Below, piece by piece: positions 8,029-39,576 of a DNA stretch of 64,000 bases (positions are counted from its first letter, which is position 1; every line of letters begins with the position of its first letter). This DNA comes from a virus. Taxonomy: Duplodnaviria; Caudoviricetes. The DNA lies in the IMG/VR virus record IMGVR_UViG_2935124990_000001, positions 1-64,000 of that record, one strand, 5' to 3'. Position numbers and translations under genes: made by a program. The notes beneath the pieces are model-generated. The model had not been told where the DNA came from. It saw nothing but the letters and a program-made list of their open reading frames with translations, and ran no database searches.

Positions 8029-8297
8029 GCCGTGTCTCCCTTGGACTGCTCCAGAACGTATCCGGTGCGGCGGGGCGCCCCGTCGCGGGTGGTGGCGGTG
8101 GCGTGGAGTTGGGTGACTTCGATGGCGCGCCGGCGGATCTCTCGGCCGTCCGTGGTGACGGTGACGACGGCGACCTTCCCGAAGTGGTAGAGGCCAACGA
8201 TGCTGACCGGCTCGCCAACTACCTTGATGCGGGCTGGCCCGTCGGCGGGGTGGTGGCGGTTGCTGAGGCTGCGGTAGATCTGTCCGGGCTGGATCAT
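8025..8297 (-). CDS. Hypothetical phage protein
   Basis: MIQPGQIYRS start, AAGGAG RBS, ATGA overlaps. Confidence 0.7.
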   Translation of the reverse strand: MIQPGQIYRSLSNRHHPADGPARIKVVGEPVSIVGLYHFGKVAVVTVTTDGREIRRRAIEVTQLHATATTRDGAPRRTGYVLEQSKGDTA

Positions 8298-11540: not shown

Positions 11541-11559
11541 CGTATTGCATAGCAATACG
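11541..11559 (-). promoter_or_regulatory. Operator CGTATTGC-N3-GCAATACG over the -35 of promoter TTGCTA-N17-TATGGT
   Basis: Perfect 8-bp arms; copies at 18051 and 32734. Confidence 0.85.
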
Positions 11560-19708: not shown

Positions 19709-20331
19709 GGGGCGTCTCCGCTCCTCGGCATTGGGAAGGGCGGCAACACGATCGCAGTCCGTGCGGCCTCCCCTGGCCGGCTGCCGGTGGCCGGTACCGG
19801 GGGACGTCCACTGTGACACTGATCAGGTCACATGGGTAAGCGTTGACCGGGTTTTGATACCTCTGTGATCACTTTGGGGGTAGGGTCCCGGCCATTTGTG
19901 GGGGTGGGGTGGGCATGAAAAAGCCCCCGGGGTGCGGGGGTTGGTGGGGTGGGCATGCCCATCCGGTGATGGGGATTGTAGACCGGGGGTCGCGTCAGGG
20001 GGTAGGGGTCGGCGGGGGTGGGTTGGGTTGGTGCTGGTGGGGTGTGGGGGCAGGGGCGGAGGCGCTGCGATACCCGGGGTGGGGAGTCGCCTCTGCCCCT
20101 GCTGCCGGACGCGTCAGGGCGTGCGGCATTCCCAGCCAAGGGCTTGGGGATGGTCGAGGGAAGGGGCTGGTCACAGGGTCACTCGTACGTGTGACCGATA
20201 AACCCCTGCAAGGTGCCGGAATCCGGCCGAAAACCCAACCGGCAAGCGGGGCACGCCCGTTGGGCTGACGACCGGCCTGTTCGGCCCCCGGGTCTTCGGG
20301 CCACACACAGGCCCCTGGTAATTTGCTCGCC

Positions 20332-21477
20332 ATGACCCATCCCAGCGCCGACGAAGCGCGCGAAAAGTTGCTCGTGAACCTGACGCCGGAGCTCCGCAGG
20401 GACCTGCGGATCCGGGCGGCGGAACACGGGCTCAACATGCAGGACGCGGCAGCCTCCGCACTGTCCCTCTGGTACGAGACCGCCGAGGCCCCCGAGGTGG
20501 AAACCCGCGGTGCGAAGTCGTGGGGTGTGTTCCTCCCTGCCGGCGGCCCGGAGCGGTTCACGCAGGAGTGCGAGTGCCGCGGCCTCACGAAAGTGCAGGG
20601 CATGGCGCAGGCCATCACCTTGTGGCTGGCCGCTCACCCCTCCCCCGACGAGCGTCTCGTTGCGCAGCCGACGAAGCGGATCCTGGTGGGCAACCAGAAA
20701 GGCGGCGTCGGCAAGACGTTCGTCGCGTCCGGGCTGGCCCAGGCGATGGCGGAGATGGGGCTGCGGGTTCTCCTCGTCGACTACGACCCGCAGGGACACC
20801 TGACGAGCCGCATGCAGATCGACGGCCTGCCCGAGGGCGGCGAGAGCCTGCTGACGCACATGCTGGGTGAGGCGACGAAGCACCTGGCCCGGTCCCTGGT
20901 CGCCCTGCCGCACGAGCGGTTCGGCGGTCGGCTCCACGTTCTGCCCGCGAGCAAGGATGCGTTCCTCATGGACGCCAAGCTGGCCCTGCTCCAGGTCGGC
21001 CGGGACACCTGCCTGGCCCGGGCGCTGGCGCCACTCGAGGACTCCTACGACGTGATCGTGCTGGACGGGCCTCCGAACCTGGGGCTGGCCATAGACCTCG
21101 CAATCAACTACGTGCAGCGCCGGCCGGGTGAGCTCATCGACCACTCAGGCCTGCTGATCCCGGTGTGGTCGGACCGGTCGTCGTTCGACGCGTACGAGAT
21201 GCTCCACTCGCAGATCGCCACGCACTCGAAGATGACGGGGGCGGTGGTCGACGAGCTGGGGTTCGTCGTGAACGCCTACGACGCGCGGAAGGGTGTCGGC
21301 ACCCGGAGCTTCTACGAGGGATGGAACCAGCTGACGGCGCCGGGTGTGCTGGGCACGCTGAAGGACTCGATCGAGGGCCGTGAAGCGTCGGACTACCAGA
21401 TCCCGTTGCTGGAGCATGCTCCGGACTCTCCGCAGGCGAACGTGATGCGGGCTCTGGCGAAGGAGTTGGCAGCGTGA
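20332..21477 (+). CDS. parA: ParA partition ATPase with N-terminal tandem RHH-like extension
   Basis: NQKGGVGKT deviant Walker A, VDYDPQG, DVIVLDGPPNLG. Confidence 0.93.
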   Translation: MTHPSADEAREKLLVNLTPELRRDLRIRAAEHGLNMQDAAASALSLWYETAEAPEVETRGAKSWGVFLPAGGPERFTQECECRGLTKVQGMAQAITLWLAAHPSPDERLVAQPTKRILVGNQKGGVGKTFVASGLAQAMAEMGLRVLLVDYDPQGHLTSRMQIDGLPEGGESLLTHMLGEATKHLARSLVALPHERFGGRLHVLPASKDAFLMDAKLALLQVGRDTCLARALAPLEDSYDVIVLDGPPNLGLAIDLAINYVQRRPGELIDHSGLLIPVWSDRSSFDAYEMLHSQIATHSKMTGAVVDELGFVVNAYDARKGVGTRSFYEGWNQLTAPGVLGTLKDSIEGREASDYQIPLLEHAPDSPQANVMRALAKELAA

Positions 21478-22414: not shown

Positions 22415-22486
22415 ACAAGGTGGTGACCAATGGTCACCACCTTGTCGTCGTTCTGACCCGAAGGTGGTAACCATTGGTCACCACTT
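22415..22486. promoter_or_regulatory. Two parS-like palindromes
   Basis: ACAAGGTGGTGACCA-A-TGGTCACCACCTTGT (22415-22445, perfect 15-bp arms) and AAGGTGGTAACCA-T-TGGTCACCACTT (22461-22486). Confidence 0.7.
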
Positions 22487-32566: not shown

Positions 32567-32655
32567 GGGGCGGGGTCCTCTCGGCGGGCGCCGCCCGTGC
32601 CGAGGGTGGCCGGGCGGGCGTGCATGGGCGTGTACCACGTCATCGTCCTCCATTT

Positions 32656-32674
32656 CGTATTGCTACGCCATGCC
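32656..32674. promoter_or_regulatory. Degenerate operator upstream of the RHH gene
   Basis: CGTATTGC-TAC-GCCATGCC, one perfect half-site. Confidence 0.55.
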
Positions 32675-32733
32675 CGACGGGTACGGCGGCCGGGAAGCGG
32701 GTGTTCCTGGCTGATGCCAACCCTACGCGCTTT

Positions 32734-32752
32734 CGTATTGCATTGCAATGCG
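32734..32752 (+). promoter_or_regulatory. Operator over the -35 of promoter TTGCAT-N17-CATTGT
   Basis: CGTATTGC-ATT-GCAATGCG (one mismatch). Confidence 0.8.
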
Positions 32753-32797
32753 TTCTGTGTCATTGTGGTCGCACACCACAACACGCGGGGGCACCAG

Positions 32798-34594: not shown

Positions 34595-35740
34595 TCACAC
34601 GCCCGCAGGCGGCCCGTCCAGCGGCACCACCGTCACCGACCGGCGAACCTGCTCCATCCGCACCGGCAACGGCTCCCACCCCCGCGACCCCGCCATCACC
34701 CAGTTCAAGGCCGCAATGCCCTTCGTGTACGACCGGCGCAACCCATCCGGCAACAACCGCACCCCCGCCGGGCCCGCCTTCGACGCCTGCAACGTCACCC
34801 ACAACCCCCGCCGCGACCCCGTCAACGGCAGGTCCTCGACCACCTGCTCCCGCACCTCCAGCCAGCGGCGCACCGCCACCCGCGACCCCTCCCGCAGCGC
34901 ATACCACTCCACCTCCGGTGCCGGCCCCAACTCCTCAACCGCCGCCAGCACCCGCTGCCTCGTCGCCTCCGACCGGGCCTCCAAGCGCCCGCCGAGCACC
35001 GCCTTCACCGACTCCGGATGCACCTCGGCGAGGGCGGCGATCTCCTCCACCCGGTTCGCCGGCCCCTTCTGCTGCCGCCGCCGCACCCCCACCGCCGACA
35101 AGTCCTCCGCCAGGTCGTCCACGTTCACCGAAGCCAGCTCACCCGACCTCGGCCCCGCATCCAGCACCACCGCCACCATCGCCAACAGCCGGGCACGCTG
35201 CTCGAACGACATGCCCACACCATCCCGCGACAACGGGCCCCGGGCGGCCAGGTCCACCATCCCCCGGTACAGCGCCTCCAACGACCGGGCCTCGACCATC
35301 GGCTTCAACTCGGGCTGCGGCAGCACCGGCAACACCAACCCCACCCCAGGGGCTACCACCGGGCCGAGCAGGGCCACACAGTCCAGGAACACCCGCTGCG
35401 ACGCCAACGGCACAGCCCGGCCCCGGTCCTCCGCCCGGTAACGCAACTCCCCGGCCGCCACCAGGTCGAACACCGCCCCCAACACCTCCGGGGCGAACAG
35501 CCGGCCCGCCGACCGCAACACCCGCCCGCCGGCCACCTCCGGGCGGCCCACCGCACGGTCGAACATCCCCACCACCGCCCACAACTGGTGGGCCCGCTGC
35601 TGTGACACCTGCACCGGAACACCACCAGCCCCCGGCACCCGCAACCGCCCCTCCCACCGGCCGGCATCACGCGGCGCGACCCGCTCCACCACCGCGGCGA
35701 GCTGCCGCACCGCCGGGGAACCGTACTGCCTGGGCGTCAC
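34595..35740 (-). CDS. Truncated tyrosine-recombinase-fold protein with LacI-like HTH insertion
   Basis: Box I LDAGPRSGELASVNVDDL; insert IAALAEVHPESVKAVLGG..SEATRQRVLAAVEELG; ends just after EQVRRS with no downstream Tyr. Confidence 0.75.
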   Translation of the reverse strand: MTPRQYGSPAVRQLAAVVERVAPRDAGRWEGRLRVPGAGGVPVQVSQQRAHQLWAVVGMFDRAVGRPEVAGGRVLRSAGRLFAPEVLGAVFDLVAAGELRYRAEDRGRAVPLASQRVFLDCVALLGPVVAPGVGLVLPVLPQPELKPMVEARSLEALYRGMVDLAARGPLSRDGVGMSFEQRARLLAMVAVVLDAGPRSGELASVNVDDLAEDLSAVGVRRRQQKGPANRVEEIAALAEVHPESVKAVLGGRLEARSEATRQRVLAAVEELGPAPEVEWYALREGSRVAVRRWLEVREQVVEDLPLTGSRRGLWVTLQASKAGPAGVRLLPDGLRRSYTKGIAALNWVMAGSRGWEPLPVRMEQVRRSVTVVPLDGPPAGV

Positions 35741-36885
35741 GAGGGCTCCTCAGTCCGGGCGGCCGCCTTCTTCGCGATCTGAGACAGCGGGTTGCGGTCC
35801 CCGGTGCTGTCCTCCTCGTCGATGTACCCAATCAGGGCCTTCGATCGGTCGTCCCACCCGCCGTGCCGGCCGATGTCGACGATGTCCACCCCCGCCGCCC
35901 GGGCGCTTTTGACCAGGCCGCGGCGCAGCGAGTGCGACGTCCACTTCCCTGGCAGGCCGGTGCGGTGGATGGAGCGGCTGACGATGTCGGAGGCCCCGTT
36001 GATGCTGATCCGCCCGTCTGGGTCCCCGATCGGCTCGCCCTTGCGGGTCATCTCGGCGCCCATGTATCCCCACTGGTCGATCCGCATGAACAGCGGCCCC
36101 TTCGTGTGCCCTTCGTGTGCGAGGGCGTCCACCAGGTCCCGTACAGCGGTGACGGTACACAGAGCCGGGTCCGGGTCGGGCTGCACTTCGACGTTCTGCC
36201 ACTTCTTCCGCTTCTTGCGGTACACCCGCACGGTGAACCCGCCTTCGGGCAGGTCGGTGAAGCTGCCCGGCCAGTTCAGGGGGGCGAGTTCGCTGCCTCG
36301 GGAGGCGATGGCGTGCCCGAGGAGCATGAGGGCGGCGTCCCGTTTCCCGACGAGGGTGTTCCGGTCGAGGTGGGAGAGGGCTTCTGCGAGGACGGCACGG
36401 TCGGCGGCCGCCGCCTTGCGCGGGGTCGCGGCCGGGTCCTGGGCCTCGGACAGCTCCCGCCGGTACCCGGCGACGACCTTGCGGGCCCCCATGGTGTCCG
36501 GCGGCTTGAACCCGGCGGCCCGGTGGGAGGAGCGAATCGACGCGATGATCCGGTCCATCGACGCCGGACCGTACGGCCGCCCGGTTCGCTTCCGGGGGGT
36601 GCGCTTCAGGTACGACAGGTACGCGGTGACGGTCTGCGGGGCAGCAGGGAGGACCCGGCGGCCGACCGTGTCGCACCAGGCGGCGAACTGCTTCATGTCG
36701 CCGTCGTACGCGTCGCTGGTGTCCTTCGGGATGCCCGCCCGGACGTCCGCCTCGGCCTCTGGCGGCAGCCACGCGTCGGGGTCCTCCTCGGCCAGCGGAA
36801 CAGCCGGGGCCCGGTCCTCCGGGATCGCGGGGAGCAGGCCCTCCTCGACCAACTCCCCGTCCACCACGCCGTCGCGCTCGCTCAC
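35737..36885 (-). CDS. Cre-like tyrosine recombinase/resolvase
   Basis: SAM-like N-domain; RDAALMLLG..RGSEL, HSLRRG, HGGW, GYI catalytic set. Confidence 0.93.
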   Translation of the reverse strand: MSERDGVVDGELVEEGLLPAIPEDRAPAVPLAEEDPDAWLPPEAEADVRAGIPKDTSDAYDGDMKQFAAWCDTVGRRVLPAAPQTVTAYLSYLKRTPRKRTGRPYGPASMDRIIASIRSSHRAAGFKPPDTMGARKVVAGYRRELSEAQDPAATPRKAAAADRAVLAEALSHLDRNTLVGKRDAALMLLGHAIASRGSELAPLNWPGSFTDLPEGGFTVRVYRKKRKKWQNVEVQPDPDPALCTVTAVRDLVDALAHEGHTKGPLFMRIDQWGYMGAEMTRKGEPIGDPDGRISINGASDIVSRSIHRTGLPGKWTSHSLRRGLVKSARAAGVDIVDIGRHGGWDDRSKALIGYIDEEDSTGDRNPLSQIAKKAAARTEEPS

Positions 36886-37133
36886 GGCCCGGTCACCTCA
36901 GCGATCCAACGCCGCAGTGCGCCCACCTCGTCCGGGGATGCGTGCTCCTGGGCGTACTTCATGACGACCGCGTACAGCGCTCCTTCGAGGTGTTGACGTT
37001 CCTCGAACTGCCGGAGGACAGCTCTGGAGAAGTCCCCAATGCTGGAGTCGCCCCGCTCATCTGCGCTGGCAGCCGCGTCATGGAAGGCCGCCGTTACCAG
37101 GAGGTGCGCAGTCGCCTCATCATCCGGGCTCAC
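36882..37133 (-). CDS. Hypothetical protein
   Basis: GTGA overlaps on both sides. Confidence 0.6.
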   Translation of the reverse strand: MSPDDEATAHLLVTAAFHDAAASADERGDSSIGDFSRAVLRQFEERQHLEGALYAVVMKYAQEHASPDEVGALRRWIAEVTGP

Positions 37134-37633
37134 GGCCGCCACCCTTCCTGGTAGTCCTGGTGGTCCGCGTACGGCACGGCCAGGGCGCACAGGGTCGGGC
37201 ACGGCATCTCCGGCCAGTCGGCGTCGGTCGTATTCGCGTCGCACGCATGGCACACCTCCACCGGATCGGCGGGGGAACCGTCCTGGTGAACCAGAGTCGT
37301 TGTCCGTACCGCGCGGTGCAGGACGACGACGCGGCGCTTCGCTGCGACCTCGGCAAGCACGCGAGCCGGATCGTGGAGGGCGATGTGCAGTGCATCCTCT
37401 GTCGACTCGAAGACGGATGCCTCCCCGCCCCAGCGTCCACCCCCGACCACAGTGCTGCCGTCGGCGCCGTAGATCGCCTCAGCGAATCCCTTGTTGTCCA
37501 CTCTCCACGGACCATCGGTGGCTGCCCGCGCGGCCCTCTCCTCTTCGTCCAGCCTGGCCGACAGGAACGCCGCCACACCACTCTGTGCGGACGCTTTCCA
37601 CGCTCTCCATGCCGCTTCGCTCTGTGGCTCCAT
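37130..37633 (-). CDS. DUF6221-family protein
   Basis: FLSARLDEEE..HIALHDPARVLAEVAAKRR..LAVPYADHQDYQEGWRP. Confidence 0.8.
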   Translation of the reverse strand: MEPQSEAAWRAWKASAQSGVAAFLSARLDEEERAARAATDGPWRVDNKGFAEAIYGADGSTVVGGGRWGGEASVFESTEDALHIALHDPARVLAEVAAKRRVVVLHRAVRTTTLVHQDGSPADPVEVCHACDANTTDADWPEMPCPTLCALAVPYADHQDYQEGWRP

Positions 37634-37654: not shown

Positions 37655-38001
37655 GATGCACGCCGATGCCTCCGCCAAGCCGTTCTGCGGCAGCGCTACA
37701 CCTTGATCGAGTGGCGCACGGGAGACCAGCGGGCGGGGAGCTGCACATCGCAGTCCGGGCATAGGTGCGCGACCAACTCGCCGACGGGCTGGGCGTGTAC
37801 GGGTACAGCCCCAGGGTGTGCGCAGCCGAAGCCCTCCGCGCGAGCGGCCTGGGCCAGTCGATCTCCGAGCGCACGCCAGGCGTCACGCTCTCTTCGGACA
37901 GCCCGCCGGATCATGAGCGCCTCCTGGTAGCTGCACCTCGGGTAAGGAGAGGTTATCCGAGGTGAGACGCAGCGTTCCGCCTGGCGCGGTGGGCCGGAGC
38001 G

Positions 38002-38408: not shown

Positions 38409-38444
38409 CCGCCGTTTCTGCTCTGTGCGCCATCCTAAGGATCA
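38409..38444 (-). repeat. 36-bp direct repeat copy 1 (contains minus-strand TAGGAT -10)
   Basis: 33/36 identical to 39442..39477. Confidence 0.8.
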
Positions 38445-38463
38445 CCCCGGTTCGCGGTCGGGA

Positions 38464-39363
38464 TCAGCGAGAGCGAGGAAAGCGGAACCCGCCTTCCCGG
38501 AGAACGCGCCGGAGGGTCGGGTCGGTGATGCCGTACGCCTTGGTCAGATCGGTCAGCTTCTCGCCAGACTTGGCCCTCTCAAGGATTTCGCGCTCCGGCA
38601 GGTCCTTCCGAGGAGCACCCTGTCCACGGAGCGCCACGCCTGCGTCTTGCAGCACCTTGGAGATGGTGCGCCATGCCATGCCGTTCTGACGCGCGAGCTC
38701 CTGGATGCCAACCCCGCCCTCGTAAGCGGCAATGATCTCGGCGTTTGACTGGCGCGCCTTCTGGTGTGAGTCCGGACCCCGGACCCCTCGAACGGCATCC
38801 TTCATGACGCCTTGTGACACGCTGAACCGCTTGGCCAGTTCAGGGGTGCTGACGCCTTGCCCGCGCAGCCTCCGGGCTTCCTCTTTCTGCTCGTCGCTGA
38901 GCGCAGGGGCATACCCGGTCGACCTCATCTCCACGCCCTGCTCGGCAAGTACGCGCCTGATTGGACCATCGGAGACGCCGTAGGTGGCGGCGAGCGCGCG
39001 GATGGTCTCGCCCGAGCGGTAAGCGGCAGCGATCTCTTCCGCTGGCAGGTCCAGCGGCGGTTGCTTGGCGGGCCGCCTCTCGACCCCCGCGTCTACCAGA
39101 ATCCGGCGGATCTTCGTCGTGTCGACGCCGTAAGCCTCGGCAAGCTCAATGATGGTCTGCCCGCCTCGGTACTTCTCGACCACTTCCCCGGATTCCGCGA
39201 ACGGCTTCCAAGGGCCTCGTGGCCGTCGTTCCTCCGCAGGAACGGCCTTGAGGACAGTCGGGCGGGAAACGCCGTACCGCTCGGCGATCACGGCAGTTTT
39301 GACCCCATCGGCATACAGGGCGCGGATCTCCTTGACCTGCTCATCAGTAAGCGCTCGCGGCAT
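38464..39363 (-). CDS. Protein made of six tandem HTH domains
   Basis: Six units of type EI...Y..G.T...LA..YGVS...IRRVL...GV. Confidence 0.85.
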   Translation of the reverse strand: MPRALTDEQVKEIRALYADGVKTAVIAERYGVSRPTVLKAVPAEERRPRGPWKPFAESGEVVEKYRGGQTIIELAEAYGVDTTKIRRILVDAGVERRPAKQPPLDLPAEEIAAAYRSGETIRALAATYGVSDGPIRRVLAEQGVEMRSTGYAPALSDEQKEEARRLRGQGVSTPELAKRFSVSQGVMKDAVRGVRGPDSHQKARQSNAEIIAAYEGGVGIQELARQNGMAWRTISKVLQDAGVALRGQGAPRKDLPEREILERAKSGEKLTDLTKAYGITDPTLRRVLREGGFRFPRSR

Positions 39364-39441
39364 CACACCGTGCCTCACCCTCTGCTTATCGTCGGTCTTT
39401 ATAGTATAGAGGGTGAATTAACAAACTTTCCGTCGCCAGCC

Positions 39442-39477
39442 CCGCCGTTTCTTTGCTGTGCGCCATCCTAAGGATCA
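39442..39477 (-). repeat. 36-bp direct repeat copy 2
   Basis: ccgccgtttct-NNN-ctgtgcgccatcctaaggatca. Confidence 0.8.
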
Positions 39478-39576
39478 GGCCGGATACAGGCCGAGCCGCT
39501 GGAGCAGCACCGTGATCCCGTAGATCACGACGGATCCCGCGACCCAGACCGTCACGGCGAGCACCCGGTACTTCAC
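39475..39576 (-). CDS. 33-aa transmembrane peptide (not in ORF track)
   Basis: MKYRVLAVTVWVAGSVVIYGITVLLQRLGLYPA; GAGGAG RBS; GTGA overlap. Confidence 0.5.
   Translation of the reverse strand: MKYRVLAVTVWVAGSVVIYGITVLLQRLGLYPA

Follow-up and report, generated by a model that had tools for sequence, protein, structure and literature searches.

What role could be played in a phage-plasmid by a protein that has the fold of a tyrosine recombinase, lacks the tyrosine, carries a LacI-type helix-turn-helix (HTH), and is encoded directly downstream of an intact Cre-type enzyme? This question is raised by two overlapping genes, here called gene A (the recombinase) and gene B (its downstream neighbor), in a 64,000-nucleotide stretch of viral DNA (the window) that forms the first 64 kb of the 91,887-bp IMG/VR virus record IMGVR_UViG_2935124990_000001; the record has terminal repeats and is rated complete. 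A first-pass annotation of the locus, made without database searches, had taken gene B to be an apparently dead paralog of gene A that serves as a directionality or specificity subunit. We find that gene B keeps the recombinase fold, lacks catalytic residues, belongs to a family that is conserved under purifying selection and bears the inserted headpiece in one clade, and has relatives that adjoin recombinases of several lineages, stand without one, or are linked to ParA genes. These features lead us to favor, at a probability of roughly 45%, a reading in which gene B encodes an autonomous, noncatalytic DNA-binding clamp that acts as a regulatory or architectural factor.

Gene B has a tyrosine recombinase fold that ends before the tyrosine

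The AlphaFold2 (AF2) model of gene B, built from an alignment of 92 sequences, is confident (predicted local distance difference test score [pLDDT], 93.6; predicted template modeling score [pTM], 0.84). Every leading Foldseek match to it is a tyrosine recombinase (XerA at an E value of 4e-4, XerH, and Cre), and structural alignment with VIA-align, spanning residues 5 to 375, gave Z scores of 12.6 for XerA, 11.9 for XerH (root mean square deviation [rmsd], 4.2 Å over 251 residues), 11.7 for Cre, and 11.6 for the Tn1549 integrase (Int). The N-terminal domain aligns with those of XerH, Cre, and Tn1549 Int, in model ranges that begin at residues 5 to 20, and since both domains superpose on DNA-bound XerH and Cre (rmsd 3.9 to 4.5 Å over 242 to 251 residues), the model fits a closed clamp shape.

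Box I (GPRSGEL) occupies residues 196 to 202 and the motif EQVRRS residues 363 to 368, and no tyrosine occurs from there to the end of the protein at residue 381. The sequence and the family alignment thus confirm the first-pass description of a protein that keeps box I, ends shortly after EQVRRS, and has no tyrosine. When gene B is aligned with Cre (1crx), in an alignment that ends by pairing residue 370 with residue 296, a glutamate (E363) stands at the position expected of the first histidine and R366 at that of the second arginine; an hhalign alignment of the two neighbors, weak at a probability of 1.3%, places R198 of gene B on R196 of gene A. Among the 92 aligned relatives, the first arginine (R198) is retained in 80, the box I glutamate (E201) in 78, the glutamate at the first-histidine position (E363) in 79, and the second arginine (R366) in 86; the position of the catalytic lysine (K225) is retained in 25. 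Among the 56 homologs encoded at the genome loci described below, R198, E363, R366, and R367 are present in every one, and E201 in 55, with aspartate in the remaining one. Measured against an active recombinase, gene B therefore has the two-domain fold (core-binding and catalytic) and both arginines but has lost the catalytic lysine, both histidine positions, and the tyrosine; the entire His/Trp segment and the entire Tyr segment are absent. Because the His/Trp segment and the tyrosine nucleophile are missing, gene B would be unable to cut DNA, and the earlier label "dead" amounts to a deduction from residues that the sequence lacks.

A LacI-type headpiece is inserted in one clade

Residues 234 to 272 of gene B (IAALAEVHPESVKAVLGG..SEATRQRVLAAVEELG) match the Pfam LacI family (PF00356) with an E value of 1.5e-3 and a score of 18.7, below the curated cut-off of 27, and a profile of the gene B family searched against the PDB matched the headpieces of Cra/FruR, CytR, and LacI, with Cra the best at an E value of 3.4e-4. 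The proposal that this segment is a LacI-type HTH is supported by the model, in which residues 229 to 273 superpose on the headpieces of CcpA, PurR, and CelR at 1.4 to 1.8 Å over 43 to 44 residues, with 30 to 41% identity and Z scores of 7.7 to 8.1. In the model, the headpiece (47 residues) sits in the beta2-beta3 hairpin, which carries the catalytic lysine in active enzymes; this placement follows from the alignment of the flanking strands with the RKKRKK hairpin of gene A (hhalign, again weak at a probability of 1.3%).

Gene B resembles the LacI/GalR regulators in this headpiece (45 residues superposed) and differs from them in where it stands, N terminal in the regulators and an internal insert within another fold in gene B. 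A LacI headpiece is followed by a hinge helix, whereas the chain of gene B goes back to a beta strand. A Pfam scan of gene B found no periplasmic-binding-protein-type effector domain, and the remainder of the model is recombinase fold. Among the 120 gene B homologs listed, 17 carry a precomputed PF00356 match, and the NCBI name of some homologs is "LacI family."

An insert of 46 to 52 residues is present in 36 of the 92 aligned relatives, and the other 56 have 0 to 5 residues at this place; the insert is specific to one clade, that of the phage-plasmids. The ratio of nonsynonymous to synonymous substitution rates (dN/dS) within the insert region is 0.15 to 0.21.

The gene B family is conserved under purifying selection

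A total of 204 homologs of gene B were found at an E value of 1e-3 or less. Among the 120 listed, all but three are 339 to 401 residues long, those three being 320 residues long or marked partial, and the named ones all come from Streptomyces or an unnamed actinomycete. Matches to gene B occur in 57 Streptomyces plasmid records (41 at 80% coverage or more), a HMMER scan of 1.84 billion cluster representatives returned 113 gene B clusters at 50% identity (63 with E values of 1e-10 or less), and the family resides mostly on plasmid-sized contigs. Gene B falls in phrog_6657 of PHROGs, a family of unknown function (E value, 8.7e-24), and its neighbors in a protein atlas are actinobacterial clusters labeled "hypothetical" or "LacI family" together with tyrosine recombinases. 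A literature search, supplements not covered, found no description of the family.

The place at which gene B ends is shared by its relatives. Of the 92 aligned sequences, 78 stop no more than 41 residues past the RR motif, and 77 have no tyrosine beyond it; the remaining 15, whose tails were read by eye, have tyrosines in unrelated Cys-rich or helical extensions, at no shared position. The dN/dS of gene B is 0.20 against its 97% identical relative and 0.26 against pZL12, with four regions, the HTH among them, each between 0.15 and 0.38, and its coding frames, rich in G+C at third codon positions, are kept across 56 loci. The shared end point and the per-region ratios bear out the view of a conserved pseudo-recombinase rather than the product of a recent frameshift; a recent frameshift or split gene was ruled out by the conserved end point and by a search that found no further PF00589-like piece anywhere in the 91,887-bp genome. 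Nothing beyond the missing catalytic residues speaks for a decaying pseudogene or a miscalled open reading frame (ORF), and with the dN/dS values, the length and end point conserved over all 113 clusters, the confident fold, and the frames kept at 56 loci, such an origin is hardly credible. Individual copies are a different matter: at L037 and L038, gene B is cut short or in two pieces, a sign that some copies are in decay.

Other C-terminal additions are found past the RR motif in some relatives (P0131, P0134, P0150, P0165, and P0169 and P0155, P0158, P0173, P0179, P0181, P0188, and P0194). One type is rich in Cys and contains "CRCxxC"; the other is helical, about 120 residues long, and closes with the conserved motif "AAGW/Y..LL..L". 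No Pfam family matched either type in the members scanned.

Close paralogy of gene A and gene B was ruled out, the best BLASTP E value between them being 0.16 and the hhalign probability the 1.3% given above. The two proteins share the fold alone, with no significant sequence similarity, and the term "paralog" used for gene B in the first pass does not hold.

Gene A is a Cre-type recombinase of a pZL12-like element

The six catalytic residues of gene A (Table 1) are invariant in 40 aligned homologs of 57 to 94% identity. Cre and Tre, an engineered variant of Cre, were the only matches to gene A in a phmmer search of the PDB (17 distinct sequences; E values, 7e-7 to 2e-5), and in these matches H318, R321, W344, and Y354 align with the HxxR, W, and Y of Cre; the full R, HxxR, W, Y set noted in the first pass is thus upheld. 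The AF2 model (pLDDT, 75.5) aligns with Cre structures at VIA Z scores of 18.9 to 20.5 (e.g., rmsd 3.8 Å over 270 residues) and with non-Cre recombinases at no more than 14.7. Residues 1 to 40 are disordered, and the model shows no extra (arm-binding) domain. The PF00589 score of 22.5 bits (24.1 in a whole-genome scan) is below the curated cut-off of 27.1; many homologs of gene A have a precomputed PF00589 match, gene A itself matches a PHROG integrase family (E value, 6.6e-8), and its dN/dS is 0.18 to 0.20. Judged by sequence and model, gene A is an intact Cre-type enzyme, with Cre closest in both fold and sequence, a tryptophan in place of the second histidine, and no arm-binding domain.

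The parallel with the Cre/loxP system of P1 extends to the host. P1, too, is a phage that is maintained as a plasmid and has a partition gene of the ParA type, and Cre, the best sequence and structure match of gene A, has tryptophan at the second-histidine position as gene A does. The systems differ in that identity between the enzymes is merely 18 to 20% and that the lox-like sites in the window remain candidates; moreover, Cre has, to our knowledge, no tyrosine-less neighbor gene. By analogy with Cre of P1, gene A would most likely resolve plasmid multimers or circularize the genome.

The window has a G+C content of 65 to 74%. Gene B shares 87% identity with pZL12.34c of Streptomyces phage ZL12, whose circular record (90,435 bp) also codes for ParA and ParB, and 97% identity with a gene of an 85-kb Streptomyces californicus plasmid (locus L001), where the neighbors include genes for an amidase, a collagen-like protein, and ParA. 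These matches, together with a ParA-like ORF at 20269-21474(+), 13 kb from gene B, identify the element as a pZL12-like Streptomyces phage-plasmid. pZL12 is described as a well-characterized plasmid bearing phage-particle genes, and two "putative integrases" are mentioned for the syntenic Streptomyces leeuwenhoekii plasmid pSLE1 (PMC4487206).

Genes A and B are coupled, as the first pass had stated: the stop codon of the one overlaps the GTG start of the other, and the sequence GAGGAG lies 6 to 11 nt upstream of that start. The ORF that in turn overlaps the start of gene A has no Pfam or PHROG match, and small unrelated ORFs overlap the start of the recombinase gene in L001, L067, and L068 as well.

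Table 1. Coordinates of the gene A-gene B region and of candidate sites upstream of it (positions in the window)
Feature	Position	Strand	Description
Gene B	34595..35740	-	381 aa, tyrosine recombinase fold without Tyr
Gene B residues 1-145	35306..35740	-	Helical core-binding-like N-terminal domain (model secondary structure)
Gene B residues 146-226	35063..35305	-	Catalytic-type domain, part 1: box I (R198, E201), strand beta2
Gene B residues 227-273	34922..35062	-	LacI-type HTH headpiece, between strands 216-220 and 277-281
Gene B residues 274-381	34598..34921	-	Remainder of catalytic-type domain; ends 14 residues past E363-Q-V-R366-R367
GTGA overlap	35737..35740	-	Gene A stop/gene B GTG start; translational coupling
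Gene A	35737..36885	-	382 aa, Cre-type tyrosine recombinase; catalytic R196, K225, H318, R321, W344, Y354
Upstream ORF	36882..37253	-	Up to 123 aa; stop overlaps gene A start
Inverted repeat	37933..37965	.	Single copy; arms of 13 nt with 2 mismatches, spacer of 7 nt; candidate site for protein binding or recombination
42-nt element	38409..38450	.	Contains palindrome GATCCTTAGGAT; heads the minus-strand gene string ending in genes A and B

Gene B relatives stand beside different recombinases, alone, or near ParA genes

We compared 59 genome loci and refer to 34 of them as close loci, those in which gene B is 49% or more identical and some 4 kb of upstream sequence is available. Of these 34, 24 have a same-strand tyrosine recombinase gene no more than about 1.3 kb upstream of gene B, 20 being detected with a hidden Markov model (HMM) iterated from gene A homologs and four more with Pfam, which picked up the recombinases missed by the HMM at L009, L013, L038, L042, and on pCQ4. 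At 15 of those 24 loci, no more than about 50 nt separates the end of the recombinase ORF from gene B. The other 10 close loci have no PF00589 match within 4 kb (Pfam, with matches placed by coordinates), nine of these contigs not being phage-plasmid sized, and L028 has none on its whole contig. Among loci without a recombinase, a D5-type primase gene adjoins gene B at one and a methylmalonyl-CoA mutase gene at another. One recombinase match (G009:C67) was set aside, its 592-aa frame being absent from L027. A Pfam tally of 62 neighboring ORFs gave two PF00589 matches and is given no weight here, its length and GC3 filter having lost real genes.

More distant relatives repeat the arrangement, in the order recombinase-x-B on pCQ4 and endonuclease VII (EndoVII)-x-recombinase-B on the plasmids at L067 and L068, which have the same 4-nt overlap and a B product 40 to 48% identical locally (31 to 39% by tblastn). 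EndoVII also appears in the order recombinase-EndoVII-B in pZL12, as EndoVII-B only on one 127-kb plasmid, and as an ORF upstream of B at L009 and L013, with a PF00589 match about 1.1 to 1.2 kb upstream. No EndoVII gene was found in the window's genome by tblastn with five relatives as queries (nothing at an E value of 1e-2).

The recombinases upstream of gene B relatives belong to several lineages, 30 to 35% identical to gene A, and resemblance in one gene does not predict resemblance in the other. The L001 plasmid and pZL12, with gene B products 97% and 87% identical to that of the window, both have an upstream recombinase only 34% identical to gene A, whereas L034, which has the closest relative of gene A (91%), has a gene B product 55% identical. 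Across the 23 loci compared, identity of the one gene was not correlated with identity of the other (Spearman coefficient, 0.15; P = 0.49). From these comparisons, genes A and B do not evolve together, and the upstream gene is swapped between close relatives. A DNA leader of about 45 nt ahead of gene B is common to L001, L031, and pZL12 despite their different upstream genes and marks a mosaic or recombination joint. The leader (…GCAGGACTSAYSTGATG…CAGGAGA.CCCG) was seen just upstream of B in L001, L031, and L064, where it gives the preceding gene similar last codons. A shared C-terminal docking peptide on the gene preceding B was considered and rejected, as the similarity stems from this conserved DNA leader.

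These data bear directly on the first-pass proposal, in which gene B would be a dedicated noncatalytic partner of the upstream recombinase, joining its synapse or binding accessory sites and so setting specificity or direction, for example, resolution versus inversion. The translational coupling of A and B, the recombinase upstream of B at most close loci and at the distant pCQ4, L067, and L068, the recombinase clamp with both arginines, and the EndoVII gene that shares the gene group in several relatives would all suit a partner. However, B stays in place while one recombinase lineage replaces another, the identities are uncorrelated, no recombinase occurs within 4 kb at 10 of the 34 close loci, and distant relatives are linked to ParA. 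An accessory subunit would be expected to covary with its recombinase or to co-occur with it obligately, and gene B does neither. We therefore regard a dedicated partnership as rather unlikely. As to whether the gene pairing is conserved, the presence of a recombinase upstream at 24 of 34 close loci stands, and the constancy of the pair does not, given the several lineages, the 10 loci with none, and the distant loci with ParA instead.

In a more elaborate scheme, A and B would occupy the two arms of a site, A would exchange one strand pair, B would be unable to exchange the other, and the resulting Holliday junction would be resolved by EndoVII, host enzymes, or replication. Exchange of a single strand pair would resemble Xer recombination at cer or CTX-phage integration. 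The retention of R198 and R366 without the tyrosine would be in keeping with a half-site role, as would the orders recombinase-EndoVII-B in pZL12 and EndoVII-x-recombinase-B at L067 and L068 and the EndoVII and PF00589 matches upstream of B at L009 and L013. Against it stand the lack of EndoVII in the window's own genome, the lack of A/B covariation, the B copies with no recombinase nearby, and the fact that no asymmetric site was identified among the candidates. Such a half-site synapse, which would amount to a hybrid recombination pathway with an obligately tyrosine-less subunit reading its arm through the LacI headpiece, is in our estimation very improbable.

The setting changes in the distant loci L044 to L057, at which the B-like protein is 36 to 44% identical to gene B and has no insert and at which recombinases were sought with the gene A-derived HMM, except at L045. 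A ParA-type ATPase gene lies 0.3 to 1.1 kb upstream of the B-like gene at 10 of these 14 loci, on the same strand in six; a Pfam check of two of the ORFs confirmed them as ParA. At L045 to L057, a short ORF between the ParA gene and the insert-less B-like gene resembles, by eye, a ribbon-helix-helix protein. A HIT-domain gene follows the B-like gene at two distant loci, and a zeta-toxin gene lies near it at one (L050). This setting could mean that the target of gene B is a centromere-like or pairing site and that it aids plasmid segregation or copy control, its place after a recombinase being mere conserved gene order, and the zeta-toxin gene and the residence of the family mostly on plasmid-sized contigs would be in line with that. 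Yet the ParA-like ORF of the window is 13 kb away from gene B, 320 to 1,115 nt separate the ParA gene from the B-like gene, and the ORF in this gap has a ribbon-helix-helix-like C-terminal stretch, so gene B need not be the centromere binder. A role in partition is accordingly improbable.

Sorted by context, 28 of the 56 locus-encoded homologs stand beside a recombinase, 10 beside ParA, and 18 beside neither. R198, E363, R366, and R367 are kept whatever the neighborhood, which argues that these residues serve gene B's own function and not a partnership.

Candidate DNA sites in the window and its relatives

A lox-type site consists of two 13-bp inverted arms around a 6- to 8-bp spacer; the inverted repeat at 37933-37965 (13+7+13 nt, two mismatches) is a candidate. 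It immediately precedes the ribosome site of a 72-aa ORF at 37696..37914(-), in the same gene string, and has conserved counterparts ahead of the recombinase genes in L001, L022 (with perfect 14-nt arms), and L031; it occurs beside other recombinase lineages too.

The 42-nt element has a second copy at 39442-39483, 88% alike and in direct repeat (two matches against 0.01 expected). The palindromes of the two copies are at 38427-38444 and 39460-39477, and the palindrome GATCCTTAGGATC or a related one recurs ahead of the module in L001, L007, L023, L031, L034, and L068, which have three different recombinase lineages. Between the two copies lies 38464..39378(-), encoding a 304-aa protein of repeated HTH_58/HTH_7-type motifs. 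In the close relative L001, the element is present once, and both the 304-aa gene and a 122-aa gene are missing; the region of the 304-aa gene therefore looks like an inserted cassette.

A search for lox-like sites returned candidates only. Lox-like palindromes with 12-nt AT-rich arms and an 8-nt GC spacer (e.g., CCATAACCTATT-GCGCGCGC-AATAGGTTATGG) were seen at L008, L010, L011, L013, L014, L018, L039, and L066, about 0.5 to 2 kb downstream of B. The window has no such palindrome, and a 144-bp gap between divergent ORFs (32654-32797) has repeated GCAATACGAAA motifs instead.

A possible centromere-like site lies about 1 kb downstream of the ParA-like ORF, at 22415-22445, where two 13-nt arms form a perfect inverted repeat around a 5-nt spacer (ACAAGGTGGTGAC-CAATG-GTCACCACCTTGT). 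Elsewhere in the genome, the motifs TCATGCTGCGGTCTCC (three copies on the same strand, at 8294, 16261, and 28728) and CGTATTGCATAGC (three copies, at 11541, 18057, and 87157) may be promoter or operator elements. No repeated motif in the genome was linked to gene B.

Recombinase-fold proteins that bind DNA without recombining it

Several known proteins have followed a comparable path. MrpR (YopR) of SPbeta is described as a master repressor with a recombinase fold that carries out no recombination; in it, the C-terminal helices with Tyr304 and Lys169 are retained and both arginines are lost (PMC10516654), and yopP, a XerC-like gene, belongs to the same operon (PMC8612738). SroF of phi3T is reported to encircle a 26-bp box as a monomer (bioRxiv 10.1101/2025.11.27.690993). 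Gene B is like these Bacillus phage proteins in having a two-domain recombinase fold without apparent activity, which in their case binds DNA as a closed C-shaped clamp, and in being encoded by a temperate phage in an operon that holds a recombinase gene, XerC-like in theirs. SroF is among the structural matches of gene B (Z scores, 10.1 to 10.4), and neither SroF nor MrpR was among its sequence matches in the PDB, so no sequence relation was found. Gene B differs from both in keeping the two arginines, in the loss of the whole Tyr segment, and in its LacI-type HTH, and for gene B the role of repressor is a candidate only.

TnsF of the Tn6022-like Tn7 transposons is described as an inactivated recombinase, without the chamber that houses the catalytic tyrosine, whose task is to select the target; in Tsy elements, an active TnsF relative is encoded behind a tyrosine recombinase gene in the same gene group (PMC10293859). 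Like gene B, TnsF is a tyrosine-less recombinase derivative, used in its case purely for DNA recognition. It differs in its N-terminal zinc fingers, its tandem core-binding-like domains, its occurrence in transposons of Proteobacteria, and its target, comM; gene B has neither zinc fingers nor transposase neighbors. The tyrosine recombinase fold also serves for DNA binding only in Ndc10 of the budding-yeast kinetochore complex CBF3, which matches gene B at Z scores of 8.2 to 8.4; this match is weaker, with an rmsd of about 16 Å, and Ndc10 is eukaryotic and has an unrelated context. Gene B is thus unlike MrpR, SroF, and TnsF in that it ends before the tyrosine helices, retains both arginines, and has an HTH insert.

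An autonomous clamp accords with the fold and its truncation, with arginines that are kept in any context, and with purifying selection on all regions, as well as with the uncorrelated identities, the swapped upstream gene, the solo copies at 10 of 34 close loci, and the ParA-linked copies at 10 of 14 distant loci. The repeated gain of other additions by relatives would likewise fit a DNA-binding scaffold. Several observations pull the other way. The tight placement behind a recombinase (24 of 34 loci within about 1.3 kb, 15 of them within about 50 nt) suggests a shared job, as does the 4-nt overlap, which recurs in plasmids in which B is only 40 to 48% identical locally, and an EndoVII gene often joins the gene group. 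MrpR, moreover, lost both of the arginines that gene B keeps, SroF matches gene B no better than active recombinases do, no binding site for gene B was identified among the candidate sites, and neither the inverted repeat nor the 42-nt element tracks the gene B clade. On balance, we propose that gene B could be a sequence-specific DNA clamp like MrpR and SroF, which would bind DNA without chemistry and to which, in the phage-plasmid clade, the LacI-type headpiece inserted into the beta2-beta3 hairpin would add a second readout. It would act in the plasmid-maintenance and recombination region of the element, presumably coexpressed with whichever recombinase precedes it, without being a dedicated subunit of that enzyme.

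Conclusions

Noncatalytic descendants of tyrosine recombinases have been recognized only recently as DNA-binding factors, with MrpR/SroF, TnsF, and Ndc10 as the examples. The gene B family adds a large plasmid and phage-plasmid branch, almost entirely from Streptomyces and of a different design, with the tyrosine-bearing helices cut off, both phosphate-binding arginines kept, and a LacI headpiece grafted on in one clade. The names "LacI family regulator" and "site-specific integrase" given by NCBI to some members both mislead. If gene B binds DNA as we suggest, it would be a natural case of an enzyme scaffold becoming a DNA reader through domain insertion, and should its link with the neighboring Cre-like enzyme prove functional, the pair would also reveal how multimer resolution is controlled in phage-plasmids.

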